A model generated the notes under the pieces. It was not told the origin of the DNA, made no database searches, and saw only the letters and a program-made list of their open reading frames with translations. Of a stretch of 64,000 nt of DNA, positions 22,744 through 46,871 are shown one piece after another; the first letter of the stretch is position 1, and every line of letters starts with the position of its first letter. Source of the stretch: Yuukianura sp. NJ FZ-2021 (taxonomy: Eukaryota); NCBI GenBank assembly GCA_046563655.1, contig CM102284.1, forward strand, positions 4,898,001 to 4,962,000, read 5' to 3'. The position numbers and the translations under genes were made by a program.

Positions 22744-24340
22744 TTAGAAAAAGAAGGTTCTTCTTGGACACGGTTGAATTCCGGTTATGGATGCAGTAAG
22801 GAGGTTCCACAAGGAATGATTTTGAGTACAAAGTACTGCCCCGCCACGGACTTTCTGATGTTGCTAAAAGTTTGAAATTTTGAAAAATTTAAAAAAAATG
22901 TTTTTGAAAAGTTGAAATTTTGTTTGAACATTTACCATTCTGTTCAAATCTCCGATGCAGATCCACGGACTACTCTCCTCTGCTCCTACCGCCCTACATG
23001 GAAAATTTTAGTTTAAAAATTTAAATTCCCTGCGCAGCGATTTTGAAAATTTTGATGGGTTCAAAATGAGTGACTTTTCACAATTCAGATTGACTTTTTT
23101 GAAAAAAAAAATCAAGTTTACCATTTTGAGTGGTCCGAATGGGACGAAAAATCTTGTCCGTTCAATTTTTTGAGCAAAACGTTGTGTACTGTTAGATTTG
23201 ATGCAGTACAGTTAGACGGAAATGGATTCGGGCCATTCAGCCAAGATTGCACATTTAGTGGACTTTGCAATTCTGGAGCAATCCAGTCAGCATAAATTTC
23301 TGCACGCAAAAAAATTAAAAATTGGAATTCAGAATTCTACCTACAGGGTAAATTACTTTCCGATTCCAACTTCGCGATTCTTACCTCTATAGAATTGCGG
23401 TCCTTTGGCAAATACCGTAAAATGCAAAGTGTCAACATCCAATTGCAGCAATTTGTACAACGGTGGACTCTTGGTTGACCTTGTCATTGACCCGTTTTTC
23501 TTTTTGACCAATTTGCTCAAATTTGGTAATTGTGGAACCAGGGCTTTAGGAATCGAGTAGTTGAAAATATTTGGACGCGTGTAGGACAGGATTTCAGCGA
23601 TTCCGTCTACTTGTGATACGTTAAGGGTAAGACATAGGAACATTTGACCATTGGTGAATCCAGTTCTTGGATACGAGTAACGTGAACTTAACGTTGGGAA
23701 ATGTGGTACGGAGTGGATGAGCCAAATACCGCCTTGGGCGTTGGTGACAATGACCCCCTTGGTGTGACCGTTGCTAAAAATTGTTGGTCCATTTGGTGGC
23801 TGGTCGTTGTACAAAAAGTAGGCGGTGGAAGAATCCTGAAAAACGAAAATTTCACAATTCCTCTGGATGACTTTTTATTGAAAAATTTTGAAAAGTTTTA
23901 CATTTTGAAATATTGGTCCAAGCGTTCTGCCAATGATTGACCTGGGGTCATCTATGCCTTCTTCACTTTCTGTCCACTGCGATGCCTCTGGAGTGACGAT
24001 CACATGACCTGCGCCTCTTCTGTAAATTGGATCCGCAGAACCGCGAACTTTTGGAAGTTTGTAGGTCAATGACCTGGGAACATTATATGGGTCACCTCAG
24101 TTAATCAAATTTCCACAACCTTAACCACAAGCGGCTTTTAAAATGTGAACTAAGCTTTTAAAAAGTTTGCAAATTTTGTCTGCTTAAATTCGAAATGACT
24201 AACCAATTGATTCTGTTTCCATTTCGATCCTCACAAGCAATTCCATTTTGTCCAACGTTTCCTTGAACGAAACACAAAATTCCAGCGACGACGCAGACTA
24301 AAACGGAGCCAAAATTTGGTTCTGGAAGATTTTTAAACAT
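22744..24340 (-). CDS. DNASE2: Deoxyribonuclease II / plancitoxin-like, paralogue 2
   Basis: Signal peptide, then CEDRNGNRINW..TYKLPK, YNDQPP..GHTKG, WLIHSVPHFP, NGQMFLC, DHSKW|AV, WICIGDLNRM and RGGAVLC. Stop at 22744-22746. Confidence 0.92.
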
Positions 24341-26089: not shown

Positions 26090-27543
26090 GAGAGTAATTG
26101 CAACTCACTTTATAGAAAATATAGAATATAGAATATAGATATAGAATATGGAACGCTCCATATTCTATATTTTGCGATTATGGGAAATATAGAAAAGTTC
26201 TGTAATTTCGATTATGAAATATAGAATACAGGAGGAAAAGCCCTTTGATTGAGAAAATTGAGACGCGCAGCGTAATTTTTAAAACAACAGTCTTGTTTTA
26301 AACGTATCGTTACTAAATGTCGCCATGTAGCTTCTTAAAATAAGATGAAATGACAATGTCGCCGTAACCTAAGTCTGCTAAAACAATGTCGCCAGTTGCA
26401 TTTTCAATTGCAATGTTACCAATTGCAATGTCGCCACTTGAAATGTCGCCATAACGTATGCCATTTCAAATGTCGCCATAACGTATGCCCATTTGAAATG
26501 TCGCCAATTGCAATGTCGCCAAATGAAATGTCGCCATAACGTATGCCATTTCAAATGTCGCCATAACGTATGCCCATTTGAAATGTCGCCAATTGCAATG
26601 TCGCCACACGAAATGTCGCCATAACGTATGTCCATTTGAAATGTCGCCAATTACAATGTCGCCGCTTGAAATGACACAATAACGTATATCTATTTGAAAT
26701 GTCGCCATAACATATGTCCATTTGAAATGTCGCAACAACGACGTCAAAAAGGTAGTTGTAACGTCGCCAAAGGTAATGTCGTCAAACGTAATGTTGCCAA
26801 TTTCAACGTCAGTCGCCAATAGAGACAACTTAAAACGATAATCCCGCCGTAACCGATGTCGCCGGGTCGAATTTTACTAGTTTCAATGTCGCCATAACCT
26901 GTCGCAAATTGCAATGTCGCCAACTAATGTCCTTAATTGCCATGCTGCCGAAACTCGTGTCGCCGGTTTCAATGTCGCCAGTCACCCTTATTGCAATTAA
27001 CGAATGTTGTTGCTTGTGGCAAATAACTTAGGAATGTCGCCGATTCAAGTTAGTTGAAATGTCGCCGTGCGAATGTTGGAAAGATGTAGTAAATTTGAAT
27101 GTCGCCATCAGAAATTTCGTAAGATGTCGACTTTTGCCAATACAATGTTACAAAAAATATGTCGCCAAGTGATGAATGTCGCAAATGTCGGCAAGTCGCA
27201 GAATTTTTGACACTTTCCCATCGTAACAACTTACTTAAGTGTTTTCTAATTCCTTAAACTTTACGCTAGCATTTGGCGACAAATGACAATTTACCTGGCG
27301 ACACCAATTTTGGCGACATATACCTTCGCGACATTTATTTTGCCCACTTTGCCAGCGCAGTCTACTTTGGCGGGTTTAAACAGGACTCAACCGTTTGAAA
27401 TTCCTGTAACTTATATTTATAATTTTTTTGTATAAATTGTGCAATAAGTGTAGCTGTTCCATATTTCAAAATATAGAATATAAATATAGAATCTATAATT
27501 ATATTCTATATTTCGCTCTATATTTCGGTTTGCAATTACTCTC
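26090..27543. mobile_element. PIF/Harbinger-like non-autonomous element (1454 bp)
   Basis: 14-bp perfect TIRs GAGAGTAATTGCAA (26090-26103) and TTGCAATTACTCTC (27530-27543). 3-bp TSD TTA at 26087-26089 and 27544-27546. Subterminal ATATAGA repeats at both ends; no transposase ORF. Confidence 0.8.
26316..27335. repeat. Minisatellite array of AATGTCGCCA cores inside the Harbinger-like element
   Basis: Dozens of (A)ATGTCGCC cores with variable spacers. A higher-order 85-bp unit (15+15+27+28) occurs at about 26420-26720. Inverted TGGCGACA copies lie near 27270-27335. Confidence 0.9.
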
Positions 27544-28282
27544 TTAGACACTTGTATCACGATGAAAAACAAACAAAAAGCATTGTACTAAAAACAGAGT
27601 TGCATGTACACTAGTAGCAGCATGCAAAAGTAGACGCCTAAATGCTTAAAATGAGTAAGATGCTACCGTTTTGGTAGGTTGCAGGATGCTTTTTCCCCTA
27701 AAGGTAATTCAATTACTTTTCGTCAGCTCTCACGAGTCATCATCCTCCCATAGTCATTTTTTGTGCACTGAATCAGCCCGGGTTGACTGTGCCAAAAAAT
27801 GTGACAAAGATTTAGAAAAGCGGAAGCATATGACAAGATTCCACGGAAAAAAGCGGAGGAACATTTTAAATTGTGTTCCACATTATGGTAACAGCTTACC
27901 GGAAAGTTTTGTCATGGAAGATGTCAGTTTCCAGACTTATATAAAGTAAAACCAGAGTTCTGGAGCAATATTTCAGGATTGCATTGCAACCCTGCAAGTT
28001 TAGTTGCACAAACTGTCGTCCCTGTTGTTTGGCAAGAAACATTGAAGAGTGCACAAGGAATTAATTGTTAATTGGGTGCATCCTAATTCCGCTTCATTTG
28101 AAACTCAAATAGATTATTTGTCGTGAACCTGGACGAGTTAAAACCAGTTGGACAATTCCCTGTGATTATGTATTTCACGATACACCAGAATTAATCAAAA
28201 CTTGGATCTAACAAGAACTACTCCAAAAAGAATTTGAAATTTTTCAAGTAAAGTTCGATGGCCTCCGCAGATATTTCGAATT

Positions 28283-29976
28283 TCAGTTTGTTTTTTGAAT
28301 TGGCTTCTTCGAACTCTTCAAAGCCTTGCTTCTTGCACGTTTCATGTTTTGTAGCAGCGCATACGCAACTAGAATCACAGAAAATTATAAAAATTATAGA
28401 AATGATAAAAATTATACAAATTATAGCGTAATTTTATGTTTCTTACTTGGAATGATGCCAAAGAGTAGATATCCCCTCATAATACTTGGAAAGTGAAATG
28501 TCATGTTATAATTGTTCGGAAGAGCAAGTGAGTATCGCCCAGTTTCAACAAACAATGGAATGGATCTAAATTTTGAAGAAAATTGGTTTGAGGCAAAGTT
28601 GGAAGCGTGATGTAAACTGGGAAATGTTTTAAAAAATTGTGAAACGCTTACGCAAAAATTACAATGGCCTCACAGGCAATTCCAGCAGGATAAAGCAAGA
28701 TCCATGCAGAGTATCTCAGCCAAAGGAGTGGATAGAAATTGACTTTGTAAATTTGGAGCATGTAGAATGGATAGCGTATGAGATCAGCTAGTGACCAAAT
28801 GTAGAATAGGATGAAGACTACTGGCAATGGCTGGATTCGTTCTTCGGTGCTAATCAATGCAAACAGGATAAAGTTCCTGCCGATAATTTGAAGTAATGCT
28901 GGGCCGATAGATGTTTTAGTGAAACCTAGCAGTGGATGCAATATTTCCATGCACTGGATGAGCTGCGAGTAGCGAAATACACTTCCAACATCTTCATAGG
29001 CTTTGTAGAAAGCAGCTGAAGAAAAAAAAGAAGACTTTTAGGAAACAACTTAAAAATTGTTGGCGGAACAAAATTTTTGATAGAAAATGACCTTGGCCAT
29101 CTCTGGAATATTTGACCGATAAAACTCCAATGATGAACAGATTCATGACAAATTGAAAGAGGTTGTACATGAACAAGTAAACGCTTCGAAGACTTTCGAT
29201 CTTGTAGCCAAATTCATCTCGTTTCAAAGATTCGAGCAGGTCGGGAAAATCCTTCATGACATCTTGTGGAACCATGTCTTCGTCGTCTTGTGATTTCCAT
29301 CGGTCAAAGTCCACCTTAAATCAGATGCTGCTATTAACTTCTGGATTACAATTTAGATCCAACCAAGATCAAAACAAGGTTTGTATAGTTAAAATTAGTT
29401 TACCTTGAGCCAGGCTGGCTTCTTATGTGACAAAGTGACCTTCTCCCACCAACCTTTGTCTTCTTTTTGTAACAGGATGTCAATGTCCCGATCCAGGACT
29501 CGATAAGTACTTACCTGGGAGTATAAGAGTGAAAACCATTTTAAATCATGAACTAAAAATCCCGAATTTTGGTATCAAACTAACCTTGGGGTTCACTGCA
29601 TGCGGAAAGTCAAGTTCGAAATGATACTCGTTTTGACCTTGAGCACCTTCTCCAATACTGTCGAAACAAATCTTCGTTTCCGCAATATGGACTCTTGGAT
29701 TCTAGAAAACCAAACAAAATTCGCACACTTCAGTCCCAGTTAACAGATTTAGCGAAATTGAAATTGCATTTACTTGTGCATTCCGGATGTCAACGCGTAG
29801 TGTCACAGCGTTTTCAGTTTGAGCTAGAAATTCAATTTAAAACATATTAAGTTCAACATATTAACAGATCTAATTTCAATTGTAAAACTGGAAAGCGTGT
29901 TACCCCAATAGACAAACGGAGAGCGGACAATGACCCCGGGTCGGTCCGAGCTGATTCTTGGCTTGTCAGCGGCCAT
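28283..29976 (-). CDS. HACD3: Very-long-chain 3-hydroxyacyl-CoA dehydratase 3 (CS domain + PTPLA domain)
   Basis: N-terminal CS domain SPFVYW|AQTENAVTLRVD...WWEKVT..KPAWLK|VDFDRW. PTPLA motifs YLFMYNLFQF, MEILHPLLG, LQIIGRNFIL, DLIRYPFYM and WLRYSAWILLYP. Stop 28283-28285. Confidence 0.93.
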
Positions 29977-30562
29977 CTTAGGTCTGAAACTATAACAAAA
30001 AAATCTCGATTAAACCGCAAGATCGTACCCAGCCAAATTTAGTAAGTGCTTTCGGAAGTGCTCCTTAAAGTACTTTGAGTTTCACTTTTCACCTCACCTC
30101 TTTCTGAATCTGAAGTACCTTACACTTCAGAATATTTCCCGTTCCCAGTAATAAACAATTAAGAAATTGCCAATTTAAAAACTCTCCTTACCTCGACAAG
30201 TGCCTGAAATTAACAGGAAGCACACGGTGGATGTCAATGATCCTTGTCCTGTTTGTTTCCCTCCTTCTAGAAAATTCGATTGGATTGTTTGTAAAGTGAA
30301 TTGAATTCCGCGAAAATTTTTCGCGAAATGCAAACTAACGAGAGGCTTTGTTTTATGAGAGCTTATGAGGAGGAACCTGCCACGTCTTTTTAATCTTATC
30401 AATCAGCTGTACTTATACAGTTAATTCCTTGGGGTTGGGTTAACACGTCACTGGCTTGTTTTGTCTTCTCCAAATTTGCAAATTTTCAGTTTGACAAACG
30501 GCTGACATTGTTGACATTAGTTTGTCAAGTAAAAGTTCACACATAAAACGATCTGTCAAAAT

Positions 30563-30882
30563 CATAGTTCGGCACTTTCGCGATCCCAAGCCAGCGATCC
30601 TGCGCTCCCCGATCTCCGATCCCAGATCGGGGATCGCTTCCAGTAAGATCGCGGGGAAGGCCCAAAGATCGGGGATCGCCTCCAGTAAGATCGCGTGGTA
30701 GGCCGAAAGAGCGGGGATCGCGTCCAGTAAGATCGCGAGGTAGGCCCAAAGAGCGGGGATCGCCGCCAGTAAGATCGCGAGGTAGGCGCAAAGAGCGGGG
30801 ATCGCAGCCAGTAAGATCGCGGGGTAAACGCAAAAGATCGGGGATCGGGTGTTTGGGAGCGCGCCAGAAGTGCCGAACTATG
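30563..30882. mobile_element. hAT-like MITE, copy 1 (320 bp)
   Basis: 15-bp TIRs CATAGTTCGGCACTT / AAGTGCCGAACTATG and five internal 42-bp tandem units. Flanked by GTCAAAAT (30555-30562) and CGTTTGAG (30883-30890). Confidence 0.9.
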
Positions 30883-31284
30883 CGTTTGAGACGCTTTTAT
30901 GAACTTTTCATTTTCATTTGAAATCACAATCACCCATCCACAAAAACACAAAAAACCTAAATCCAAAAATTCGCAATTCTACAATGACATTAACATTTTT
31001 TCTACGGAACATCTTTTTACGCAATTTCTCCTCGCCATAGCAACGATCAACGATACACCTAAAAATTCCAAATTTTGTAAACATTTCTGAAACAAGCAGC
31101 AAAAATTCTGAAAACCTCACAACGGTTGGTTCTGAATATTTGAAATCTAAAGCAGAGTCAGCATTCAGCAATCGAATCTTATTTTTCTGTCACTTTTTGG
31201 AGAAGCCTCTTATTCGTTACTTCGAACAATTCTACAAATACTTCATAGAATTTCAACTATAATTCGTACATTGTCAATTCAGTT

Positions 31285-34200
31285 ATGCAAAGAAACGAAC
31301 GAACTCCAGACAGAGGAGGTGGAGGTGACACGTACGTCCAAGCATCAGGCGGAACCCGTGGTGGTGCTGGAACAACATTTTCCAAAGGCACCAAATCCAA
31401 CATCGGCATTCAAAAACCACGCCCATTCAAAACTCCCGCACCTCTCTTGGGTTCTCCATCTGAATTCATGCAAGAAGCTCTACTCAGAGGCTTACTTCCT
31501 TCAGCAACTGCCCATGCGCAAACAACGACTCAAGAAATCTGTCGTACATCTAAATCGAGTTATGAGTACGACAGTTTCCCGCCAATTTTGCTTCAGCGTG
31601 AAGCAACCAAATCATCTACCAAACAACCTCCAGAGTCATGCACCTCCTGTTCAGAATTCCCGCCCAGCCAAGGTCACTTGCTCGAAGAACTCCGAGCCCA
31701 ATGTCGGCGGGAAAATCGGAATCCAACTCTGTACCGAATTGCAACTCCTTTAGAAATCTCCCGAATTCCAGAACATCTCCGGAACCTCAAAACAATTCCA
31801 CTGGAACCACCAAAAGATGACATCGATGACGACACTCCTCCAGACGCTCCATTACCTTACTACCTTCCTAAAGCGCCTTCCAGTGACAGTCCGAAGAAAC
31901 AGGGCATCAAAAAACCGAAACATCCAAAGTTAAGTCGGAAGCCACAAGCATATTGGCGTTGGGAGAAACCAGACAAGACAAAACCCATCGAACTGCCTTC
32001 TGCCTGTCGAATTGTAGAAGAAGCTCGGCAACCGGAAATTCCCACCGCCGCGGAGCCGAAGAAACCACATCTAGCATCACTTGTAGACTTCGAAGACGGA
32101 GAAAGTGAATCAGACGAAGAACTCATGCCTGAATTTACATTTGAAATTGTCCAAGAACCACCTACACGCAAAAATCCAAAACCAATCACTTCATCCACTC
32201 ATTGCGGACCAAAAATGTAATGAATCAAAATTATTTCAAAATTAGTCACTTCAATTAGTCATTTCAACTTTTAGAAATGAATTAAGTCATGTTTTTGACA
32301 AAAACAAAAGTTTGACGAATTCCGAACACTGAAAGTATCTAAATTCAAAGCAAAATTTCAAAAATTTTGGAAAATTTTTCACATTTTGATCTTCCAGGCC
32401 TCAGAAGCAGGACCAAATTCACACGGCGGAGTACAACATTTACCGCGGACCAAAACTGCTGATCAAAACACGTAGCCACGAGATCATTTTGCATAACGAC
32501 CCGGATTACGAACACAACACTCCAATCAAGCTCTTCATTGAACCATTCGATGACTTTGCAGCCACTTCCAGTACAAAAAAAATACCCTAAAAATGCAATT
32601 TCAATTAAAATTTAGTAAAAAAAATTTAACTTTCAACATTTCAAAATTTCCTAAAATTCGATTTCAGAATGCTGCGAAATCCAAAAAATTACTTTGCTTA
32701 ACGAAGGAACTACTGCTATAAGATTCCAGTGGATCAGAGCTCCTCCAGGTCCATGCATTCAAAAGTTTTTGGGAAACTCTGCAAAATTGCTCGACGCTGG
32801 CAAATCCCTACGACGTCGACACTTTCCCCTTGCAGTTCAAGCTGCCGCAAATCAAAAACATCAGCAGCATTGTAACTTCCAATACAAAAATCCAGCAAAC
32901 AAAAGTTTCTTTCAACTTTTTCAAAATCCTAAACTAATTTTTGTTCAAAAGGCGGCGACATTAGCAGTGGACCACGGAAAATGGCTCTGCATTTGACAAC
33001 TTCCCGTCGCGTCAACCCAGCTTTAACTCGCGCAATTAAAATTCTGAACAACACTGTTAGCTCTGACACTGCTTTTCGAAACTTGCTCCTTCTTCTGTCA
33101 CTTCGCGTTCCAAGATTAAAACGCGAACTGATTCGGCGCACAAAACGTCAACTTAGCAGCCGAACTCTTCCAAGACAAATTCACGACCTTTATCTACGAC
33201 TTCGGAAACAAAGACGTGTCAAGTACTACCAACCTGTGAAGGCTAATAGACGACGACTCCAGTCCCGAGCCAGTTTTGCATATCACGAGGACTTACCAAA
33301 AGGCAACTCAAAATTTAGACATGTGCACCAACAAATTCGATAAAATTTGACTTTCACAATTTTAGAAGAGTGCACCAAGAAATTCGATCAAATTTCATTT
33401 TAAAAATCAAAATTTTAGAGTTGTGCACCAACAATTCGATAAAATTTGATGTTCAAAATTTCAGACGAGTGCACTTGTGACCTGCCATCGGACGGGGACT
33501 CATCGGATTCGTCCCAATCAGATGCTTCCTACAACTTCTTCCTGTTTCCCAACAAACTGCCACACGAATGTGTCTGTTCCCGCCCAGCATCTCCACCCGC
33601 CGCCCCACCGACAACCGCGCTTCAAGAGGAATGCGTTCCCGAGGACACTTCAACTCCACCAATCACGATGCTGCCGGAAGACATGATTTGTTTCTACCCA
33701 CCACAAATGGAATGTATCTGCGAAGGAATCTGCATTTGCGAACCTCCAGCTGAAGATCAAGGAATCTGCGTCTGCGGTCCTTGCTGCATCTGCAGTCCGC
33801 AAGCATCTTGGGGAGCATTGAAATACTGGAGTGCCGGTGAGCAGGAAACGTCAAGTTGTACTTGTATTGGCGTCTGTTCCTGTGGTTTCCCGGCTACGCC
33901 TCCTCCGACACACCGTGCCGAATCCCAGACTAGCTGCATTTGTATCGGAACGTGTGACTGCGGTCAACCGAAACCGGAGTACATCAACTGCACTTGTGAC
34001 GGCCCTTGTATTTGCGAACTTCCTCCAGAGGACGAAAGTTGTCCCTTCGAAGCTGAATGTACAGAAGATGCTTGCCCATGTCCAGACCCATGTGCATGCG
34101 ACATTCCAGAAACAGTTCTTTGCACTTGTGGACCAATCTGTACATGCATTTCTCCACCATTCTCCGCAAGTTGTTCCCAAGGCCACCTTCCAGGAAGTTG

Positions 34201-36263
34201 TCTCTGCACACCCTGTACCTGCGATCCACCTCCCGAAGAAGCTGTTTGTACTTGTGGACCATTCTGTACTTGCAAAACTCCTCCAGCATCGGACGTCTGC
34301 TTTCCAACACTGCCCATCATGCCTCCAGAAGACTGTACTTGCTCAGCTTGTAAGTGCGGTGACTTTCAAAGCTGTGAAAACAAGCTCATGAGCCGCGGAA
34401 CGCAACTTCATCCATTGTGCTACGAACCATATACGCCGCCGCAGACTCAACTGGAGGAGACAGAACAAGCTGGAGAGGAATATGAGGTTCCCGATTCTAG
34501 AAAAGCCAGGCCGAGTTATTTCCTGCGATTCTACAGTGACCAATTCTCAAATACATGCGTGGGGGAAGACGCTGGAGAAGGAGCCATTTGCCCTCCGGCT
34601 CCAAAAGAAACAGTTCCCAAGAAAGCTCCAGTAATCTTAAGCATAATTTACATAAAATAATTTCATAGTCACATAGTCACTTAATTTCAACTTTTCATTA
34701 CTAACTTTTTCCAAAAAATTTTCTCCCTTCCAGAAAATCCGAAAAACCCGAAAAGTGGAATTCATCAAACCAAACTGTCCCGAATTCATTTTCTGCGAAC
34801 TTCCACAAATACTCCTTCCAGGACAAAAGTACAAGTTTGAAATCATGTTTCGTCCAGAAAAACCTGGAATTTACTCCGAAACGATTTACTTGTTGACACA
34901 TCCACGACTAACTTCCGGTGCCTACGGAATTCATCTCCGTGGACTCTGTATCAATCCAGAAAGTTCTCCAGAAACTTGTAATTTTCTGGACAATGTCCAG
35001 GACGACCGAGGCGACCATGAACCTTCTCTCGACACATCCTGCATATCAAAAACTCTCTTTTCAAAAATATACGATCGGCAAGCGAACCAAGCCCTTCACT
35101 CTATCATGGATCATGTCCTTCACTTTCAGCCTGAACAAAAGTTGACATGTCCATACGGGTAACATGAAAATGCTAAAATCCCAAAAACTCATTTGTGACA
35201 AAAATTACAAAAATCTGCTAAAACATTCAAAACTCGTCTCCTTTTTATAGGCGATTGACGTCCGAAGCCATTTTCAAAACTCACAATCGTCACCTCCATT
35301 ACTATCCAGACTCGAGTGAATCAGCGCTGCACATTGTCAAAACGTTGCTCCAACTTCTTGTAGCCAAGACCAACATTGTCGACAATCCCGCTATTTGCGA
35401 ACGTAACATCACGGTAACACGAATCATTCTCCAATAATTTAAGCTTACCGCCAAATTATTGTTCTCCAGCCGATGTACGAACTTCCGAAATCTCGAACTT
35501 TTCAAAATTTTGAATCTTGTTTTCAGAAATTGTACTACGAATTGCTCAAACCGTCTTCGGAACAAGATTATTTCGATGCCAACCTACTTTCAGACGAAGT
35601 GGAAGGTTTGCTGGCCGAATTTCGTACCATTACGACCGAACTTACGAGACCTCCAGTATTCATGGGCATGTCAGCTGCCGAACGCTGTGACGTTGGGCTA
35701 TCAGTGTCTATCCATGCAATGGTCGACGAACTGACCCATTCATTCAACAGGATTTCAGAAACAGTCAAAAATAAATTTACAACACACATTTGGCGAACCG
35801 TATTGGATGGGAAATTGACCAAAGTACGAGAAGCCGAAATTGAAGCAAAACTCCAAAACCAACGTCTAAGAGTATGAATCACCAAATTAACCAAACCAAT
35901 TAATCGGTAATTCATTAACACCCCAACTTAACATTTTCAATTTGTTTCTAGATGGAAACTAAACAACGAACGATGAAATGGGACATTTCTACCCAGACCG
36001 GAGACAATTCCGTTCCGAACTTAGACGACGAAGACGACATCCCTGTACCAGAAGTTCCTGCGGAAGACATTGAATATCAACTGCACCGAATGTACGCAGA
36101 ATCCATTCGGGAATCACGTCTCGCTTCTGCGCAGAGCATAATTGCAAATGCTATTGAGCGCATGGTTTCCTTTATGGACGCTTCTGAAAATCTTTGTGAC
36201 TATGAAAAGCAACAAGTGATTGTCAGCCCAGGCGATGACGATCCCTTCAGATGCTGCCAGTAG
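31285..36263 (+). CDS. MYCBP-associated protein-like (cilia/sperm) with a large Cys-rich internal exon, multi-exon
   Basis: Exons join in frame. Motifs GPKLLIK, TLLNEGTTAIRFQW and ILLPGQKYKFEIMFRPEKPGIYSETIYLLTHPRL..GIHLRGLC resemble the MYCBPAP Ig-like region as recalled. Cys-rich exon at about 33465-34630; stop 36261-36263. Confidence 0.6.
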
Positions 36264-39200
36264 TTTGAAATCCAATCAACGAAACGAACCAACCGACTTA
36301 AGAATCGTAAAAAAAACTTTTAGAAGAAAATAAAAAATAAAAAACACTATTCACCAGAAAATTAAAATAAATTTTGAAGAAAAAAAATTGTTGTTACCTA
36401 TTTCTGCCACTTTGCTGACAAAACTTATTAGAATCGACAGTGTGTTTTCGACAAGTTTTTTTTTCACTTACTCCGGCCTGAACCCTTCACCTTAACAATG
36501 ATCGATTTGTAAAAAAATTCAACCACTTTTCAAAAAAGCTTTTGTCCGTATTCTAACCTTGAAGCTTTTCAAAACACGAAACTGGACAATACAAACAAAC
36601 TAGTCGATTTTCAACGTGTCACGAACACTAAAACTTTTCTATTATTGACGCAAGTTCTTATCCATTAGTGTCAGGACATCCCTAGAGTACTGGCAAAGCC
36701 ACGCGCTTGCAAAACTTACGCTTGACCCATACCCATATACTTCAAAAACATCCAGGACACTTTTTCAATCTAACATTATGTTTTTCTAGATTTAGGGCAA
36801 GATAGCCAAAAAATTTCGCACCGAATTTTAACACAGTCGTCACAATTCCAAATTCCACAAATTCGCCAAAAATAAATTTTTATCTGCTGAAGAAACTGCA
36901 ACAAGTCAAATACTGATCCCGATCTGTTAAAAACAAAAACAGGAAAAGAATTTTGAAATTGGAAAAGTTTGTTTTCCCTCATATTTTTTTTACGATTCAA
37001 AATTTCCCACGCCCTGGCCATGATCTTTCTGCCTTCAAAACATTTCAAGTTCCTCTTCGTGACGGCGACATCAAAAAAAGTGGGCTCAAAATTTTGAATT
37101 ATTGAAACAATCTACTCCAAACGGAATCGAAAAAAAAGAAAACTATTGACACGCCAAGGACAAAAGTACAAAAGTCAGTCATGAACATACATGATAGAGC
37201 AATTCCCGTCTCTCTAATTTCCCTACACTCGAAACTCCAAAAACCAAAATCCAACCAAATCCGAATTTCAAAAATTTCCATTTCAAAATTACATCCATCT
37301 CAAATCCAATGCTCCCACAAGCTCCCACAAAGTATCTCTTTAGCACTTTTACTTTTTTAGCACCTTGACCTTGCCCGTCAATTTACCACCACAGTAGTTT
37401 ACCAATTCACAAGATCATCTCTTCTACCAACAGACATCTCTTTAGTAGCCAACTCTAACCAATTCGACCTTGATGCACTTAAAACCAAAAAGTAAAAAAT
37501 TTGCACTTTCCACACCCCAATTCCAAAGAATAATTTAAGCATTCCACAAGCATAGAATTAAACCAAACCAAGTAGATATGAATTGCCGCCAGCATTTTCA
37601 CGCCTATCAAAAACTCTTCAACTGTTAAAAGAACAAAACGGAATGAATTTCACTGCCCAATGCCATTTACACCATGTTCAAAAATCTTAACACTAATTTA
37701 ATTGCTCACGATCAAAATAGTTAACCACAGGATGCTAGTAGTTAAAAAAGAACCACTCTAGACTAAACACTTCTGTTGAAGGAAACAATTGATCATAAAA
37801 AAGATTTCGATTTTTATCAAGTGCCAAGACCCATTATTAAAATTCACTAATTAAATGTTGCACATAAAATTTTCCAAGAAAATTTTTCGTGTTCCTCTTC
37901 CATCTAATATCGTCATGGTCCGTTCGTCATCTTTAAAATCCAAAATCTTACAAGCTCCAACCATCCTTAAATCTTGTTTCCTAAAACTTCTTTTGCAATT
38001 TTACAATTCCGCTTCCTATTCCGCTCCTACCTTAAACTCAACGTTAACTAAAGTTAATCTTCACATTCGCAAGTCCTTTACCTTGCAAAAATCTTTAGTC
38101 GCAGAATACCCTACATACATTCTACTTAATGCTCCGCTCCTTAAACCTTAAAGCCTCCGAGATACTTGGTCCTTGTGACCTTAATTCGCAGGTTCTCATC
38201 AACCTATAACTATGATTGAGGGTGGTAATGGCAGCACATCAGTTAATCAACTGCTACTCGCAAGTACTTTGGTACTGGCAGCATCGCCAGCAGGCTATCT
38301 TCCAATCACATGACGCTCCTGTACCAACTACTTAATTGCAACGGACTTAATTGAACATTTGCCATTGTTCTGACTATCTTCCTGCTCAAAGTTGAAACTG
38401 ATTCGTATTCCCCACTGGTTACTGGTTTCTTTGTGTAACATAGTAAGCGAAACTTCCTACTGTGGAAGATGCAGCATCTCTCTTTCTACAATGATGAAGG
38501 AAGATGCCCTGCATCCAAGATTTTTATGGAAGATTAGGATATGGATACAAACTACTAACAAGAAATTGAAACTCGAATTCATAAAGTTAAGCAGCCAAAA
38601 ATTGAAAAAAAAAACTAGGTTGCTATTCTACGCCCTTTCATCTCCACAGGCCACAAATTACCAATTCATTTGAAAACATGTACGCAAAATGACACCACCC
38701 GACCCACCCTGTTTAAGGTGCGTTTTCGAAAGACATTCACAATTGATGCTAATGTGAATTCTAAACTTAAACTTTAAGAATTGGATTTAACGTTAAGAAT
38801 AACTACCATCACAGTTAGACCACTCATCATCACTTCTCATCCTTGCTTCCGGGTATGTTAAGTCTGGGACTAAAACATGACAAAGTCACACGCTATGAGC
38901 TTACACACAACAAAAGTTTAACAATTTTGAGTTTTACAAATGGAGTGGCTTTTCTTTTTTCTACTTTGGGTGGCAACAAGGGCGGAGAAGGAAAAATTTA
39001 ATTTTTCAAAATTGGAGCAGACCTCAGGCAATGTACTCGTTAATTTCAATTTTTTTTTCTTGAATTTTAGGAAATTAGAAAGCAGTAAGAAATTTAGGTA
39101 AGAGAAGAGTTAAATTGAATGTATGCTGAATGTTTTCTCAGAAAATCGTAGTATATGACTTGTGGTTTAGAATTCATTCGTTCATCACTACTCGAGTGAC

Positions 39201-39636
39201 CTGTCTGATGATCTCTGTCACAGAAAATGAGGAAGATGTGAAAAAACTGGTCAAGCAAGTGAAAGAAGATTAATCTCAAGGCAAATGTATCTATTATGCA
39301 GTTTAGTTACAAACGTTGGATCTCCATTCTTACGTTATGCTTATGCCTTAAAGTAAACCTCGGGATTGAAAAGCATATGGGGCAGTATGATACTGCCAGC
39401 ATCACAAAGACTATAAATTGAACCTTGTATTTTGCATAGTAGTAAGTGCCCCTAACACACATTTCGAAACAAAACTCCCCTCATATGAAAAACAGTCGTA
39501 AATCTTTCATCTGAAGCCTAATTAAAACTAAGTTATTGTTAAAACTCAAAATGGTTACAAAAGTTTTGTATTCTTTGTCCTAACAAAAGAAATGAATGAA
39601 TCACAATTTTTGATTTTTTAGAACAAGGAAGCTGGG

Positions 39637-40705
39637 ATGTCGTCATTGAACAAACTGATTCTGCAACGCCCCAGGGATTCTGAACATTCGCAACCGGAAG
39701 GCTCTGGTCAATTTTCTCAAGGCAGTGGTTCGTCACAGCAAGCACCCAAAGTGCCTGTCCTTTTGAAACGCCCGGAAGGAACAACTACGACACAAGGACC
39801 AGCGATAGTCTCAAGGACACTGACACTGGGACAATCACCAGCCATTGTCACTGAAGACAAAGCTAGTCAGCAGACCAAAGTCGTCCAGGCGGAAAAGAAG
39901 AAGCATATTCTTCAGCGAACCGGTACACCGACAGTGGGTGGTGACCAGGGAGATCGTGAACGTGATCGTGTATCTTCTGCAGGAACTAATTTGTATGATC
40001 AATTGAAACCTTATGAATTTCCTTACGACAAGGCAGTTCCACTCATTCACAATGACTTATCGTTCAAATCTAATCGGAAGTTCCTCAAGTCTCTGAAGTC
40101 AACATATGACTACTTGGTGGTTACTGTCATTGGACCACCGAGATCAGGTTCGACAAGAGCTTAACTTAACATGAAATGATTTATATTATAAAACGTTTTT
40201 AAACGTTTTAGGAAAGACGACCATTTTGAACTACTTAGCGGGAGCTCCAGAAAACACTGAATTCAACTGCGAACCGAAAATTTTCACGCCGCGGAAGGAC
40301 ATCGACGATGAAAAGCTCTGCACGTTCTACATTACTCCCCAAAATATTGTGTTTATCGAAATGGCGCCAATTTTTAATGCCTCGGCTGCGGTTGACCTCA
40401 TTCCAACTGTTGACAAGTATTCTACCCTCGAATCCGTGACCACGGTAAGTTTTCATGAATGACTAATTGATCAATATTAACTTAACCCCAATTACTTTGT
40501 ATGTTTATGTTCCTGGTTATATTTTTTGTGAATCAGGCCTGGAATTTGCGGCTGATGCGTTGGACACTCTCCGTGAGTCATCTGGTTATCGTCACCAGTT
40601 TGGCTGTCATCGAGCCCAAGACTGTTCAATTGATTCACTCAGCAGCCAACCTTCAACCTATGGTAAACCTGGCCGACAAAACATCTTTATTAATTCTGTG
40701 GCATG
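39637..40705 (+). pseudogene. SMG9: SMG9 (NMD factor) 5' portion, apparently truncated at its 3' end
   Basis: DYLVVTVIGPPRS|GKTTILNYL (P-loop), FYITPQNIVFIEMAPIFN and LRLMRWTLSVSHLVIV match the SMG9 G-domain. Coding character is lost after about 40705 and no downstream SMG9 exons are seen before MITE copy 2. Confidence 0.65.
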
Positions 40706-41343
40706 CATTTCAAATTTCGAAAAGAAACATGAATGTTGGAGAAAAAAAAAACAAATGTTGTCAGTTTTGTCTGATCAGCTTGTCTAGTCACTGACGCAGA
40801 CGCTGATGAGTGTTGATGTCCCCAAAATGAGACAAATTTTAGTTGTTGACAAATATTAACTTCCTCAAAACGAAAAAACACAACTTATTTTTAAACTCTG
40901 CCTTCCGCAAACTACAAATATGAAAATCTAACTTATTTTTTTTATTATGAAGCCGAACCGGAAGATTTTTAGAAAAGACGGAAACCCCTGTTACTATCAA
41001 AAGGCTAGAATTAAGTTGTCCACTGCCCAATTCAAATGCAACAGGCAGAATAAACGCCCCACTCTACCATTTTTACTCACAAATATCACATCTACATCAA
41101 GATTTGATTCAACTTCACCTTCCATCTTAATTCCTAACCCTATTATGTTATATCACATCCCAACTAATAACCTGTTCACCAAATATAGGTCAACTACAAC
41201 AATATTTCAGTCTCACGCTTCAAAAAAAAAAACATAAGTTGCTCACCTCACAAAAAAATTGAATCAAACATGTAGCCATAACGTACTAATTTTTTTTGTA
41301 AAGTGATTCCATCGAATGTGTCGTTGGTTTGCTTACGTTTGAG

Positions 41344-41663
41344 CATAGTTCGGCACTTTCGCGATCCCAAGCCAGCGATCCTGCGCTCCCCGATCTCCGA
41401 TCCCAGATCGGGGATCGCTTCCAGTAAGATCGCGGGGAAGGCCCAAAGATCGGGGATCGCCTCCAGTAAGATCGCGTGGTAGGCCGAAAGAGCGGGGATC
41501 GCGTCCAGTAAGATCGCGAGGTAGGCCCAAAGAGCGGGGATCGCCGCCAGTAAGATCGCGAGGTAGGCGCAAAGAGCGGGGATCGCAGCCAGTAAGATCG
41601 CGGGGTAAACGCAAAAGATCGGGGATCGGGTGTTTGGGAGCGCGCCAGAAGTGCCGAACTATG
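41344..41663. mobile_element. hAT-like MITE, copy 2 (320 bp, identical to copy 1 by eye)
   Basis: Same TIRs and 42-bp units as copy 1. Flanked by CGTTTGAG (41336-41343) and GTCAAAAT (41664-41671). Confidence 0.9.
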
Positions 41664-41773
41664 GTCAAAATCAATACAAAACAGCTGTGCGGAGAGACCG
41701 GAATTGCTGGGAAAGCTAGCTAAAAAGAGCAGCAGTATTAACTGACCTGACACCACTTGACCTTAACGGGAAT

Positions 41774-42546
41774 ATGGAAGGACCAAATCCCACGATTCCC
41801 TCTGGATCCATGTCATTTCCTGCAATCAAATTACCGTAAGTTTATCTGTTCCACTCTTCGTGTCTCAGAGTTTGCACCGTTTCATAAAGTGACAGCAGTA
41901 GTAACTTAACTACCTTGACTGAATTTACAGGAATGATGGCAAGATCAATTTTTTCCAGTTGGAAAAGTTTCAACTATCAAAACAACAGGTCGTGGAGTGG
42001 TACACTGGAGCCCGTGCGAAAATCAGACCATGGATGACATTCTTCGCTACAACGCGATACAAAGTACCAGTGTCACCGCAGCAGCTACCTCGACGGATCG
42101 TCATGAATGTCGAATACTTTCAGAGCAATTACCTTTTCGTATTCATTGGACTGTTCTTCTTTTGCCTGTAATCGAGTTAACCGTTAATTCTTTGAACAAT
42201 CAAATACTAAATCATTTCTAATGCAATTCGGATTCTTTGCAGGATAACATCACCGTTTCTTTTGCTGGTAATGTTGCTGCTATTCAGCTTTGCATACTGG
42301 ATCATTGTCAATGACCGCTTGGCAGTTGTCTTTGGCCACAGACTTGCCTTGCCTCAGCAGTGTTCACTCATTGGACTCTGCTCAATGCCAATTTTGTACA
42401 TCGCTGGAGCTGGAGCAGCACTGTTCTGGGTACTAGGAGCTTCATTTTTCCTTATCATGACGCATGCCATTTTCTACGACATCCAAAGTTTGCTGGACCC
42501 GGTGAATGATGAAGGATTCGAACTCACCATGGAACAAGTCGTCTGA
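41774..42546 (+). CDS. RABAC1: Prenylated Rab acceptor 1 (PRA1 family), 3 exons
   Basis: Motifs IRPWMTFF, RRIVMNVEYFQSNYLFVFIGL, ITSPFLLLV and AGAGAALFWVLGASFFLIMTHAIFY; ends ELTMEQVV*. Confidence 0.92.
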
Positions 42547-43241
42547 ATGTCGCAATCTCGTAACTATCGAACGAATCAAAAACGTCACTAGAGAAGTAGA
42601 TACATCAGTACCTGTATCGCGCTAAAGAACCTACAGAGTATCAGCAAATCAGTAGCGAACCCCACAGCTTCTGTTGTTATCCCTTGCACTTTTTATTTAT
42701 TAAAGCATTAGGTACATTGTTTTTCCGAAATACAAATGAATTATAATGCAGAGAATTAACAAGCAATGACATTTCAATCTTACATTCTAGAATGTTAGAA
42801 CTAATTCATTTGTGCAGAAACAGTAAAGATAGTAAAAGTAGTTGAGTAGTAAAAGCGACATAGGATAAGCTAAGCTACTAACATAAGATTCTAAACACTT
42901 GCGTCTAGTGCCCAAAAGCAATTTTTCAACAGTACAATGATACCTTACAGAAAACAAATTGAGAGTTGTAGTAGAACTTGCATTTTTTTTTATATTTTAC
43001 GGAAAACTATTAAGGCGCCAGCCCAACTAATCTTCTAAACCTAGAACTTTGTTTCACAAACCGAGAAGCACATAATTTGATCCTTTGGTTAACAATTTAC
43101 CGTAAGTTGATCTAGGTTTCTTAACACATGCCTTTCCTTTCTTAAGGTCAAAGGTCATCTTAATTTCACTCTTTCCGTCATTACTTCTCTTCTGGATCCT
43201 AATCTTTGATCTTGGTTAGATTTGGAATGGTCGCAGGAGTT

Positions 43242-44871
43242 TTAGTTCTTCTGACCAAGAAGTCGCAGCAAGTAAAGGAAGATGTTAATAATGTCGAGGT
43301 ATATCGTCAATGCAGCAAATCTATTAAAAACATAATGAATTAGCGAGTTAATAAGTTGCTGTTAAAAATGTTTACTTACACGTAGTCTTCTGGTGAAATT
43401 GCCTGCTTGTGATGCCCTCCTACCAACATCTGCACATCATGGACGAGGTATGCCGAGAAAAGAAGTGCACCAAGAGCTGTCAAACAATTTTAAATATGAA
43501 TTAGTAAGTTTTCCAGAGCCTGCTGAAATACTTTAGTACAAGAGTTTCAATATTTACCGGAGTAGACCATTCGCAGAACAGGAAAGTAAGCTCTGAGAAA
43601 AATAGTCATGATTCCAAACAACAACAGAACAATGAGCATCACAAAAAGAATTCCCGACATTCGCGTAAAGTCAATCTTCGTTTGGAAGGCGAAAATCGTA
43701 AGAGATACGCACACCACAACAGTAATTCCAGCCGCCAACAAGACAGTGTCCACTCTGGAAATTGAAAATATAAAAATGAGCCCTTAGGTTTAACAAGGAG
43801 CATTTAGTACCTAGGAGTTATACAATTGAGCTTACTGATAAGTGGAACACACAGCTCCCACAACAATGGACGTTGCAAAAGTGAATATCCCCAAGAAGAT
43901 GTAATTGCCTGGTGCCGTACGCTGAACACTTTGACAACAGATCAGCATGCATGCAGTAACGATATAAACACCTAGCACTACCCATAAAAACCATGGGTTT
44001 TCCATCGTCCACTTCTGAAGCCCTTCGTGATACAGGAACAAGCCAATGCAGGAACTGGTAATCAGCATTTGGACCGAGAGAATACCGAAGACCTTCCTGT
44101 AATAACAAAATCAGCAGTGCTTTAACAGTAAATCCACGAATCAGCTCAATCAGTTTGGAGTTGCGCAAACTCAACTCCAAACTGATGAACAGGTTATTTA
44201 CCACAAATAGTAGTGTTGGTCCAAACCTAATAAACGCCATCCGGATGCTCTTTTCCGAAAAAGCATAGCCAGCAATATCATTATGAAATGTTGTAAATTT
44301 CGGTTCCTCGTCATCACTGTGGTTAATTGGCTGTTGGGATTGTGCCGGAGGAATGTAAAATCCAACTGGCGGAATGGCAGCACCACCACCACCATATATT
44401 TGTCCAGTAGAAGCTGGAGCTGCAACTGATGCTGGCGGAACCGCTGCATCGCCGCCACCAGTTACTTGTCCATTGACAGCTGGAGCAGCTACTGGTGCTG
44501 GCGGGTATGGCAGATCTTTGCTAAGGGGTTGCGATTGTACTGATTGTAAATAGGCTTCATACGGATATGCAGATCCCGTGCTGGGGCCAGTATAAGTCTG
44601 CGACTGGCCGAATTGTTCCGAAGGTGGAAAATATGACGAATGTTGCTGCTGAGGCGCATATGGAGTGTACGGAGTATTACTATACGGCGGAGGATTCATT
44701 TCACCAGTTGTCGATGATGTCAAATTCTTTTGATCTAAAGGAAAGTTAAACACAGGCGTTCGAATTAAACTACTAAAAGGTCGAACTGAATCTTAATGAA
44801 AGTCTCAAGGGTGTGCCTGGTTAAAAGCTTTACAATTACCAAAAGCAATAATACGAATACGACTTACCCAT
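43242..44871 (-). CDS. Protein lifeguard / TMBIM (GRINA/FAIM2-like), multi-exon
   Basis: Pro/Tyr-rich N-terminus, then FSEKSIRMAFIR|KVFGILSVQM, PGNYIFLGIFT, FAFQTKIDFT and SPEDY|VFAALTIYLDIINIFLYLLRLLG. ATG in a micro-exon at 44871. Confidence 0.92.
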
Positions 44872-46871
44872 GATGGTTATCTCGTCCACTCGAGAATGAA
44901 TAAATCACCTCCCGAACCCGATTTCCTCTGATAACGTTTGGAATTGGATGTAAAAACCACTGCACTAAAAGCGCCTGAAAACAGTAGTATTTAAAAAAAT
45001 TATAAGTTGGATTGGATCTGGAATCTGGGGTCTGGAGTGTGGAGTCTGGACGTAACTTTACTTCAATTGTAAACTAAATTGTGAGCTAAGGAGAATTGTC
45101 TTCTCTTAGTGACTAACCGAGGTAAGTTAGTTACCTTTAGAATTAACTAATTGAAGCGAACTTACCCGTACGGTTGTCTCGCGGTGGTCAAATGTCGACT
45201 GTTTCTTGATCTGTTCGGAATCGGACAATAAAGACGTTCATTTCCTTGCAAATTGTCGATCTTTTGCTTTTCATTTCATGTCTCTCTCACTTCAGAGAAT
45301 TGTTTTCCAAACAAATTACGTCAACACCACTGACTTACATAAAATTCCAAACTCCACCCTTTCGGTTTTTATTTCAGAGTTCAGTAGATTGAAAAAACAA
45401 AAAACGTTATTTTATTAAACTGCAAAACATAAAATCGTTAACCAGAATCCTGCTAAAATAAACCATATAAGTACTAACAAACGACTGCCACAGCCACATA
45501 CCACATTAACCCAAAACCACAGAGAGATACAAAACTTTTAAAATTAAAGAATTTTCTTTAGTAATTAGCATTGGTTAGCTGTCGCTTGTCGGTGACATTA
45601 GGGTTGCAAGAAAATTTTTCAAAAGACTTTGCTGACTGTGTCGTAGCTGTTACCGCGTTATAAGTGTGATGACGAGTGAGTGAATGTAACAAATTTTATT
45701 CATTGCACCAACGTAACCACCCAGATTATCACGTAATATGTGAAGCACCCCAGTTACTTTAGCCAAATTTTTTAAAAAGTATCTGTTTTTCGTCTGAAGA
45801 TGACGTTAAATTCGTATGAATCGATGACGCAAACCAAAGCCAAAAGCAAAGCCGCAACATTTGAGATACACATAATAATTATTGACTGCTGAAATAATAT
45901 TTTTATGATCGAAGCATGACCCATTTGTGATTGTGACCTCTTTTGCTTCTTTATTAGCGTAAAACGACAAAAAAAACCATATGGAATGTTTTGAAATCAC
46001 ATAAACATATACTATGTGACATTTGTTTTCTAAATTTACCAAACCATCGAAGTACCAAACTATTCAGTGTGTTCCATTGACCTTTAAAGCTGGAAGTCAG
46101 CCCGTCGAAAGCATTGACATTTGACCTGGCTCTGGCTGACGACGCGACGGGGCTAATTATAAAAAAAAATCTCGGATATTAATTGCCCATCTCAGTTGTT
46201 GTTGGCGGTTGGGTTGTATTGAAGTAGCTTTTAGTACGACCGCCTGTTTTTTTTTTTCGAATTTCAATTTTTATTTTTCTTTCTGTCCTTTCGTGTTTAG
46301 TGTTTCTGGTGCCTCTGCACTTTCTAGTGCTTACTTCGTGCTTACTACTAGTACTGCGGGTTTCTGGATTGTTTATAGACTGATTGATCGATTGATGGAC
46401 GCTTCACGATATCAGAAGGTAAGGATGTATGGATTACTTAACTAAGCACTTTAGTAATTAACGGTATTGTTACTATATTTGGTACAGGTTACATTAGTGT
46501 CGTGTTATTAGTATTCTCATTCTCAAGTCAGCTGCTTGCTACCCTTGCTCTTCTCGCTAACAAATATAGATTGGATATCGTTGCGAGCTTAACTAACCAC
46601 ATAACGTTTATTTAGAGATGTTACACGGATTGAACTAAAACTACTAAGTCAGTTGGTACTAATTCTACTCGTACTCGGCGAGAAAGTGAAGTTAAGACCG
46701 AGTGAGGACGAGGAGAAGAGTGAGGGAGTGACGGTATGATACGGTCTACCTTATTTTTTAAATTGATTGTTTGTTCTTTGTTAGTAAGATTTCATTACGA
46801 TTCTAGGTAGAAATATCCTCGGGTCGCTGTTTGGATTAAGCCGAACGTTAACGGAAACCTCGATTGAAAAA

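Follow-up and report, generated by a model that had tools for sequence, protein, structure and literature searches.

A stretch of 64,000 nucleotides from contig CM102284.1 of Yuukianura sp. NJ FZ-2021 (hereafter the window) contains two identical 320-bp MITEs in direct orientation and, between them, a cargo of 10,445 bp with two genes (30891–41335, + strand). The most plausible reading of the cargo is that it represents an additional, circularly permuted copy of a native segment and was inserted between a HACD gene and a PRA1-family gene. The 8-bp flanks of the two MITEs are exchanged, and the two ends of the cargo, which lie far apart in the window, are joined to each other in sequencing reads.

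The MITE copies occupy 30563–30882 and 41344–41663 (both + strand) and are equal at 320 of 320 positions, each with a perfect TIR of 15 bp (CATAGTTCGGCACTT). Their shared identity ends at the element termini, extending 0 nt further on either side. The left copy stands between GTCAAAAT (site A, 30555–30562) and CGTTTGAG (site B, 30883–30890), and the right copy between CGTTTGAG (41336–41343) and GTCAAAAT (41664–41671). The order is thus GTCAAAAT-M-CGTTTGAG ... CGTTTGAG-M-GTCAAAAT (M, MITE), with all four 8-mers on the + strand; the reverse complement of neither 8-mer was found across the window. Each exchanged pair matches over exactly 8 bp, and the ninth bases are unequal. The probability that two random 8-mers of the window are equal is 3.5e-5, and that of both pairs matching is 1.2e-9, or 1.1e-8 when calculated from the real frequencies of these two 8-mers. 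A chance origin of the exchanged flanks, with a probability of about 1e-8 to 1e-9, was ruled out, and the exchange is a confirmed observation in the window. The comparison also bears out an earlier note on this DNA, which had described two identical direct TIR elements of 320 bp, neither with its own TSD, whose outer flanks match each other and whose inner flanks match each other.

The interior of the MITE is made up of a 42-bp unit in 5.3 repeats (89% matches), and its GC content is 0.61, compared with 0.40 for the window. As single-stranded DNA it folds with −76.2 kcal/mol (z −4.86). In the window the TIR 15-mer matches exactly at each of the four termini and nowhere else, and with three mismatches at five unpaired places; there is no third MITE copy. 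Besides the MITE pair, the cargo and the remainder of the window share no repeat of at least 40 nt. In the reads the MITE is multi-copy and has variants, with other letters at 41609–41614 and differences in length, and the MITE end had 0 matches in metagenome scans. The TIR of 15 bp begins with CA, and the 8-bp TSD known from hAT MITEs is present, a feature that is not specific to hAT. Transposons of the P superfamily likewise make 8-bp TSDs, and that of the P element itself is 8 bp. Site A fits two of two positions of the hAT target consensus nTnnnnAn and site B one of two, which is too weak for assigning a superfamily. The MITE may be regarded as a candidate hAT-superfamily element, with the P superfamily fitting the 8-bp TSD too.

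The first cargo gene belongs to the MYCBPAP family (31285–36263, + strand), as the earlier note had proposed, with a Pfam match to PF14646 (E 1.7e-12) on the ORF at 34677–35162. Another of its ORFs (32655–32996) has a weak Pfam match under the cut-off, and a Cys-rich ORF of 405 aa (33443–34660) lies inside the domain. The tentative ATG at 31285 and the TAG stop at 36261–36263 were checked in the sequence. The second cargo gene (39637–41237, + strand) is a series of ORFs with checked ATG and TAA that encodes a putative P-loop G-domain protein; the only lead is from the Atlas (G-domain clusters, scores up to 0.90). Three of its ORFs gave no Pfam match, one of them having a DUF match below the cut-off, the PDB search was blank, and a word-based search scored 0 of 84 candidates. 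The earlier label of this gene as SMG9 was accordingly not confirmed by the Pfam, PDB and word searches. To the left of the insertion, an exon of the HACD (PTPLA) gene lies at 28648–29037 on the − strand (PF04387, E 1.4e-34), and this gene is transcribed away from the insertion. To the right lies the PRA1-family gene (41923–42546, + strand), supported by PF03208 on two ORFs (E 6e-14 and 7.7e-12). Rfam and tRNA scans of the window found nothing. A DNase II-like ORF was also observed, whose best match in a homology search is metagenomic and 54% identical, the rest being at most 42% identical (insects, cnidarians, vertebrates); a close relative was not found in that search.

The read evidence consists of contigs (k=31) of four public sequencing runs, X1 to X4, from two studies, X4 being from the second. 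Of 1167 contigs, 21 joints and 254 loose ends, it covers 32, 15 and 24, respectively. A contig of X2 joins the right end of the cargo (41335) to its left start (30883) over a single CGTTTGAG and without a MITE; this joint goes back 10453, eight letters fit both sides, and its side is 45. In X1 and X4 the same joint is present as a variant, with 13 other letters for the window's 15 just left of B. Since a contig with k=31 cannot jump through an 8-mer, molecules with cargo end, B and cargo start in succession exist, and the two ends of the cargo are therefore contiguous elsewhere. The block order is reversed, as 41335 and 30883 adjoin natively and are the far ends of the cargo in the window. One contig of X1 begins exactly at 30883, which is the branch expected between MITE-B-cargo and cargo end-B-cargo. 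The occurrence of two junction alleles over two samples argues for an old native arrangement.

The best explanation is that the native arrangement, with one CGTTTGAG and no MITE, persists in the same animals, though the junction could instead stem from tandem cargo units at this locus. Contigs running from the cargo end through B into a MITE would look alike for the insertion and for a native allele occupied by a MITE at B, so that such an allele is possible as well. That the empty junction arose by precise excision was rejected, since hAT-type excision normally leaves footprints and the variant junction allele is present in the second sample. Metagenome scans gave 0 matches to the native junction. 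The earlier note had suggested looking for a donor-type empty site, and this site is found, without a MITE, in read contigs of the two studies. The note's reading of a circular or duplicative origin requires cargo ends that are contiguous elsewhere and is supported to that extent; the junction seen has no MITE. Its interpretation as a whole is partly supported, the donor-type empty junction speaking for it.

At site A, contigs of the left flank (x) enter the MITE unbranched, to 30590 in X1 and X2 and to 30578 in X4 (16–28 nt), as do those of the right flank (w), from 41635 in X1 and 41637 in X2 (27–29 nt). As the x and w contigs are unbroken at A, an empty A allele is not visible in either sample. 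A contig of X3 runs from the cargo end 23 nt into MITE copy 2. With bridging defined as at least 31 letters on each side of a boundary, no contig bridges a flank/MITE boundary, and no piece among the contigs listed covers the MITE-B-cargo boundary. Since contigs enter the MITE for only 16–29 nt, the A-M-B and B-M-A linkage rests on the assembly.

Among the 32 contigs listed of 1167, depth was 314–442 for the cargo and 225–272 for the flanks in X1, 80–154 and 38–109 in X2, and 6.7–10.4 and 4.9–6.3 in X4. Cargo contigs listed thus have 1.2–1.6 times the flank depth, a noisy ratio, and contig depth is no copy number. The contig with the variant junction in X1 has a depth of 120, about one third of the cargo depth. 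These values fit three cargo copies to two flank copies, from which we infer two native alleles plus one insertion, with a solo MITE on the other A haplotype. The comparison of read depth proposed in the earlier note gave a cargo deeper than its flanks, which at these ratios is a weak hint only.

Every route that could lead to this structure requires an internal junction, J, within the cargo. It was not located; the candidate zone is 36.3–39.6 kb, between the two cargo genes. Reading the sequence at 36.2–39.7 kb for J gave no answer, and a fine composition profile revealed a G-poor tract without a decisive break. Among the 24 of 254 loose ends, no place had matching 'behind' and 'before' ends. 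Direct repeats flanking the segment at the native locus were considered from two loose ends of X4 (37086, before; 38928, behind) and rejected, since the depth there is not raised.

We tentatively favor, at a probability just short of even, an origin in which a transposase combined the ends of two copies of one MITE, each copy supplying a single end, as in sister-chromatid or hybrid-element transposition. The MITE-free junction, together with A flanks that run unbranched into the MITE, suggests a third route beside the circular and duplicative ones of the earlier note, with a resident MITE at A, its sister copies, and a circle opened at B. A MITE would already have been resident at A, where GTCAAAAT would be its duplication. 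Once replication had produced sister MITEs, the right end of one and the left end of the other would have inserted together, and their target would have been site B on an extrachromosomal circle derived from the native locus. The circle would thereby have been linearized between two MITE copies and CGTTTGAG duplicated. Within the transposase class this is the version we prefer, as a possible but rather unlikely course of events. Alternatively, in the manner known from maize, the native locus would have carried the MITE at B, and ends of its sister copies would have inserted into A, followed by re-replication of the flanks, fork abortion and end joining, in which case GTCAAAAT would be the new duplication. 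We infer that a circle and a transposase step were involved, in what order the events took place and how many copies there are, and to our knowledge no hybrid element has been described that inserted into a circle. The transposase class is favored by the 320/320 identity, since hybrid-element models predict identical copies (PMC2775673), and by the precedent of maize Ac/fAc composite insertions (PMC4270019). That sister copies of a resident MITE each lent one end into a circle with two intact genes in the germ line of an animal, making a eukaryotic 'cointegrate', is in our view unlikely when taken as a complete statement.

The flanks could also be of homology-driven origin, by MITE-MITE recombination or repair with no transposase at the decisive step, which we consider doubtful and rather on the unlikely side. 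A circle already carrying a MITE at B would, as in the first option of the earlier note, have recombined with the identical resident MITE at A, and the flank pattern is indeed that of a single crossover between circle and chromosome, like a cointegrate or plasmid integration. The MITE at A is apparently on both haplotypes in both samples, so that a resident target existed, and reversed-order circular intermediates are described for human (PMC7450558) and cattle (Durkin 2012, via PMC12235870) duplications. In another version, broken ends left by excision at A would have been copied outward from an ectopic MITE at B, with template switching within the MITE and then end joining inside the cargo. 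However, a homology-driven origin presupposes that the native locus had a MITE-bearing B allele, and the junction demonstrably seen is the empty form only, although an occupied one is possible. It also needs A and B copies that were identical over 320 bp, but family members in the reads differ, and recombination predicts chimeric copies where a hybrid element predicts identical ones (PMC2775673). Exchanges between chromosomal MITEs, unequal or single reciprocal, were rejected, as the hybrid junctions would lie on different products or far apart. Inversion by ectopic recombination was likewise rejected, the copies being direct and the flanks not reverse-complemented, as was a larger segmental duplication, since identity stops at the TIR ends.

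It should be noted that no contig bridges a MITE and that consensus polishing can make repeat copies perfectly identical, so an assembly artefact has to be considered, in which two true loci, x-A-M-A-w and a native locus with a MITE at B on one haplotype only, were threaded together via the 320-bp repeat. All five junction types (x-A-M, M-A-w, cargo end-B-M, B-cargo start and cargo end-B-cargo start) are compatible with it. We nevertheless regard it as improbable: it needs three wrong joins within 11 kb, at both MITEs and internally, since the left part of the cargo does not lead back to its right part when the native locus is linear. The window contains no N, and the listed cargo contigs are deeper than the flanks in four runs, unlike what a single diploid native locus would give, although this point is weak. 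Macrotransposition, in which a tandem-duplicated native segment MITE-cargo-MITE moved by its outer ends into an empty A, fits the outer 8-bp duplication and the outward termini of a two-element macrotransposon, and the identity of the inner flanks would follow from the tandem duplication. We consider it very improbable, as it needs an additional, unobserved tandem duplication and an allele with a MITE at B. It also predicts that A was empty beforehand, whereas flank x continues into the MITE in both samples, with an empty A visible in neither, and the footprint allele expected at the native locus was not seen among 15 of the 21 joints.

The topology is the same as that of bacterial cointegrates and the IS26 translocatable unit, in which two direct copies bound one replicon. 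There the order is donor flank, element, target flank, one whole replicon, target flank, element, donor flank. It results from DDE reactions, replicative or conservative, between circular replicons. The recipient here, unlike in those systems, is a linear animal chromosome, and we know of no replicative chemistry of hAT or P transposases, nor of a replicative or targeted-conservative one in eukaryotic cut-and-paste families. In maize, Ac/fAc composite insertions carry 14–23 kb of donor flanks, are bounded by transposon termini and 8-bp TSDs, and contain an internal join made by microhomology or HR (PMC4270019). They resemble the present structure in their outward transposon termini, the 8-bp TSD on the whole insertion, the donor flanks inward and the requirement of an internal junction, which was not located here. 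In the window, the left end of the MITE forms the left boundary and its right end the right boundary, while the DNA inside adjoins the opposite ends. The maize outcome is duplicative, with the donor retained; for the present case this is probable, a donor-type junction being present in reads. In contrast to the maize cases, which involve reversed ends of two neighboring elements, the present case concerns an animal and a non-autonomous element of 320 bp, whose two copies are complete, identical and in direct orientation, so that a version with sister copies of a single element would be required. Its donor junction in reads is empty, and its inner flanks duplicate each other over 8 bp.

Sister-chromatid transposition is documented in an animal by hybrid-element insertion of the P element (Gray et al. 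1996, as cited in PMC2775673), which takes one end per copy at the same site and predicts identical copies and exchanged flanks. Its products, as given in that source, are inversions, deletions and duplications of adjacent DNA, and the capture of a separate circle is not among them. A two-element macrotransposon is known for Ac (Huang and Dooner 2008, as cited in PMC2775673). At Drosophila inversions, Galileo and the MITE BuT5 have swapped flanking duplications (PMC2775673, PMC3355041), and the diagnostic logic of two copies of a cut-and-paste element with swapped TSDs is the same. Those cases have inverted, chimeric copies with reverse-complemented flanks and result in an inversion, whereas the copies here are direct and identical and the result is an insertion. 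Duplications through circular intermediates (cattle Cs29/KIT, Durkin 2012; human cSDPs, PMC7450558) share the circularly permuted copy. Their breakpoints show only microhomology or short indels and their segments are far larger, but here the circle would have been opened at a transposon target site, and both boundaries are whole MITE copies with exchanged TSDs. In a non-exhaustive full-text literature search, exchanged TSDs were found only for inverted copies and inversions, and no animal was found in which MITEs in direct orientation enclose a permuted insertion with genes.

The event looks young, given that the two MITEs around the cargo do not differ and that these animals have kept the native junction. 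The routes of whole-gene duplication to new locations that are known mechanistically in animals are few, namely retroposition, NAHR and a handful of cases with circular intermediates, and plants have Helitron and Pack-type capture. Direct copies with the flanks A-M-B ... B-M-A are a clean signature that can be scanned for genome-wide and across species. If the transposase route is true, alternative transposition and composite insertion of the maize type would extend to an animal MITE, and if the circle route is true, eccDNA would be tied to heritable gene relocation. If sister copies of a resident MITE did insert into such a circle, MITEs together with a trans-acting cut-and-paste transposase could turn eccDNA into heritable, relocated gene duplicates.

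Two directly oriented copies of a 320-bp element (the MITE, M), at 30563-30882 and 41344-41663, match at all 320 of 320 positions, and their identity ends precisely at the element termini on both the left and the right. Both carry a perfect 15-bp terminal inverted repeat (TIR) and have an interior of 5.3 repeats of a 42-bp unit; the element has a GC content of 0.61 (vs 0.40 for the window), and its folding as single-stranded DNA is far beyond that of shuffled sequences (z -4.86). The left copy is preceded by GTCAAAAT (site A, 30555-30562) and followed by CGTTTGAG (site B, 30883-30890), while the right copy is preceded by CGTTTGAG (41336-41343) and followed by GTCAAAAT (41664-41671), with all four 8-mers on the plus strand. 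The probability of both flank matches occurring by chance is 1.2e-9 from the window's own 8-mer spectrum and 1.1e-8 from the frequencies of the two 8-mers themselves. The direct pair of identical TIR elements and the swapped 8-bp flanks (A-M-B ... B-M-A), both claimed in the earlier note, can thus be read directly. No third MITE copy was found within the 64-kb window, where the four exact TIR matches are the four termini and the five matches with 3 mismatches are all unpaired. Besides the MITE, a repeat search of the window found no repeats linking the cargo (30891-41335, the 10,445 bp between the B sites) to the remainder. Target site duplications of 8 bp are typical of P elements as well as of hAT elements; site A fits the hAT target consensus, and site B only half fits it.

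On a linear chromosome, A-M-B ... B-M-A with direct copies resolves to a chromosome x-A-M-A-w, where x and w are the left and right flanks, plus a circle, and this is its only one-step topology. Inversion was rejected, as it would need inverted copies and reverse-complemented flanks and the copies here are direct. An exchange between two chromosomal MITEs, whether unequal or reciprocal, was also rejected, since the two hybrid junctions would fall on different products.

The region was found in five public sequencing runs from two studies, of which four were compared over 27001-45000 (X1-X3 from one sample and X4 from another). A single contig of X2 passes from 41335 to 30883, going back 10453, with 8 letters fitting both sides and 45 letters on the shorter side; it reads cargo end, one CGTTTGAG and cargo start, with the MITE absent. 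A variant of this joint, in which 13 other letters replace the window's 15 just left of B, was found in X1 and X4. This native junction is therefore present as two alleles, in two samples, and the donor-type junction across B that the earlier note had proposed to look for exists in the reads in an empty, never-occupied form. Together with the topology, it indicates that the cargo is an additional copy, circularly permuted, of a segment that natively runs from the second cargo gene to the MYCBPAP-family gene.

The runs consist of k-mer contigs, so no contig can cross a 320-bp multi-copy repeat. Contigs of the left flank enter the left MITE without a break at A (to 30590 in X1 and X2, to 30578 in X4), and contigs of the right flank likewise enter the right MITE (from 41635 in X1, from 41637 in X2). 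They reach 16-29 nt into the element. In X3, the cargo end continues 23 nt into the right MITE. None of these contigs has the 31 letters on both sides of the boundary that count as bridging. A contig of X1 starts exactly at 30883, where a branch is expected from two predecessors, the MITE and the cargo end. The MITE-B-cargo boundary is covered by none of the listed pieces of X1-X4, and an empty-A joint is absent among the 15 of 21 joints displayed. The earlier interpretation of a cargo closing into a circle and moved by a MITE is partly supported, and the native junction strengthens it; several mechanisms would fit, and the linkage across the two MITEs is that of the assembly.

Depth was taken from 32 listed contigs of 1167. 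Among these, cargo and flank contigs had depths of 314-442 and 225-272 in X1, 80-154 and 38-109 in X2, 154-303 and 90-248 in X3, and 6.7-10.4 and 4.9-6.3 in X4; contig depth is no copy number, and these values give a weak hint that the cargo is present in extra copies. The variant-junction contig of X1 had a depth of 120, roughly one third of that of the cargo. As the most coherent account we infer one inserted copy in addition to two native alleles, with a solo MITE on the second A-locus haplotype. Bins over the MITE were 5-8 times deeper than adjoining bins and contained variant letters and length variants, implying that the element forms a multi-copy family with some differences among its members. 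A tandem array (26405-26926) of 85-nt, 58-nt and 28-nt units with a recurring AATGTCGCC motif is a high-copy satellite or repeat family, since the bin next to it (27001-27600) had 5-10x the depth of the bins around it in each of the four runs. Contigs of X4 break away from the window sequence past 35514 and past 38928 and come into it at 36379 and 37086, with bins 35401-36600 about 2.5x deeper than the other cargo; here the second sample differs in structure or has additional partial copies. In X1 and X3, a contig leads from 37144 back to 32347 through 40 other letters, among them a short CCTAA-type telomere-like repeat; this could be a chimera mediated by repeats, or a further rearranged copy.

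The host sequence is that of an animal, with compact, intron-containing genes. A HACD/PTPLA gene lies left of the structure on the minus strand (Pfam 1.4e-34) and a plus-strand PRA1-family gene right of it (6e-14 and 7.7e-12). Within the cargo, a plus-strand MYCBPAP-family gene (Pfam 1.7e-12 on one ORF, and on another a weak match below threshold) has a tentative ATG 394 nt past the left site B. A 405-aa open frame with many short Cys-containing repeats (33443-34660) falls between the gene parts matching Pfam positions 266-286 and 294-363, making it a large lineage-specific insertion in the protein. About 3.3 kb of non-coding DNA separates this gene from the second cargo gene, a plus-strand ORF series whose final long ORF stops ~100 nt ahead of the right-hand site B. 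Its earlier label, SMG9, could not be confirmed in Pfam, PDB or word-based searches, and a language-model comparison gives a lead to a P-loop G domain. The MITE cuts the relocated copies of both genes off from their native upstream DNA. Elsewhere, two minus-strand DNase II-like ORFs 5 kb apart (18268-18765 and 23353-23874) are apparently paralogues. With the latter as query, a protein similarity search found no close annotated relative; the closest match was metagenomic (54% identical), the remainder were at most 42% identical, and all matches listed carried PF03265. At 50666-51400, within the most AT-rich part of the window (GC 0.30), three unit copies spaced by ~278 and 319 nt each terminate in a tttttcag resembling a splice acceptor, after which comes a short, conserved stretch that looks coding; these may be tandemly duplicated exons.

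Every route to the structure requires an internal join (J) inside the cargo, which, provided both genes are intact, presumably falls in the spacer at 36.3-39.6 kb; J was not located in the run contigs, the spacer sequence or the composition profile. The spacer contains a 2-kb tract strongly G-poor on the plus strand (36250-38200, GC skew down to -0.53, a fairly sharp end near 38.2 kb), whose ORFs have no Pfam match; it may correspond to a long 3' UTR or to a repeat, or may lie beside J.

Several routes yield the identical product. Transposition using the ends of two element copies is quite possible as a class, if short of probable. Within it we tentatively prefer that a MITE was resident at A and that, after replication, one end of each sister copy (hybrid-element or sister-chromatid transposition) would have inserted into a circle copied from the native segment, at its site B; that site would then be the new duplication and the native locus would remain empty. 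The MITE copies are identical, a MITE at A is apparently on both haplotypes and in both samples, and only the empty B is demonstrably present, so this route calls for fewer unobserved alleles than any other; we infer the circle, the action of the transposase and the sequence of events. Conversely, the native locus could have held a MITE at B whose sister-copy ends inserted into A; re-replication, fork abortion and end joining would follow, as in maize composite insertions, which span 14-23 kb, have termini and 8-bp TSDs as their boundaries and are joined internally by microhomology or homologous recombination (PMC4270019).

A MITE at B also enters two homology or repair routes, jointly rather unlikely: recombination of a MITE at A with a circle bearing a MITE at B, or excision at A followed by gap repair templated by the ectopic MITE at B. 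In the Galileo literature the classical discriminator is that hybrid-element insertion gives identical copies and ectopic recombination chimeric ones (PMC2775673; see also PMC3355041). An assembly artefact is improbable, and tandem duplication followed by macrotransposition is more improbable still.

In animals, a non-exhaustive literature search found no permuted, gene-carrying insertion bounded by direct copies of a MITE. In its workings the structure resembles a bacterial cointegrate, although we know of no replicative chemistry for such transposases. It equally resembles a maize composite insertion, but lacks the donor with two reversed elements found in maize. Durkin reportedly described a circular-intermediate duplication in 2012. 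Such duplications share the permutation signature (PMC7450558); however, their breakpoints carry only microhomology, unlike those here. The structure is thus not a clean member of the cointegrates, the maize composite insertions or the circular-intermediate duplications.
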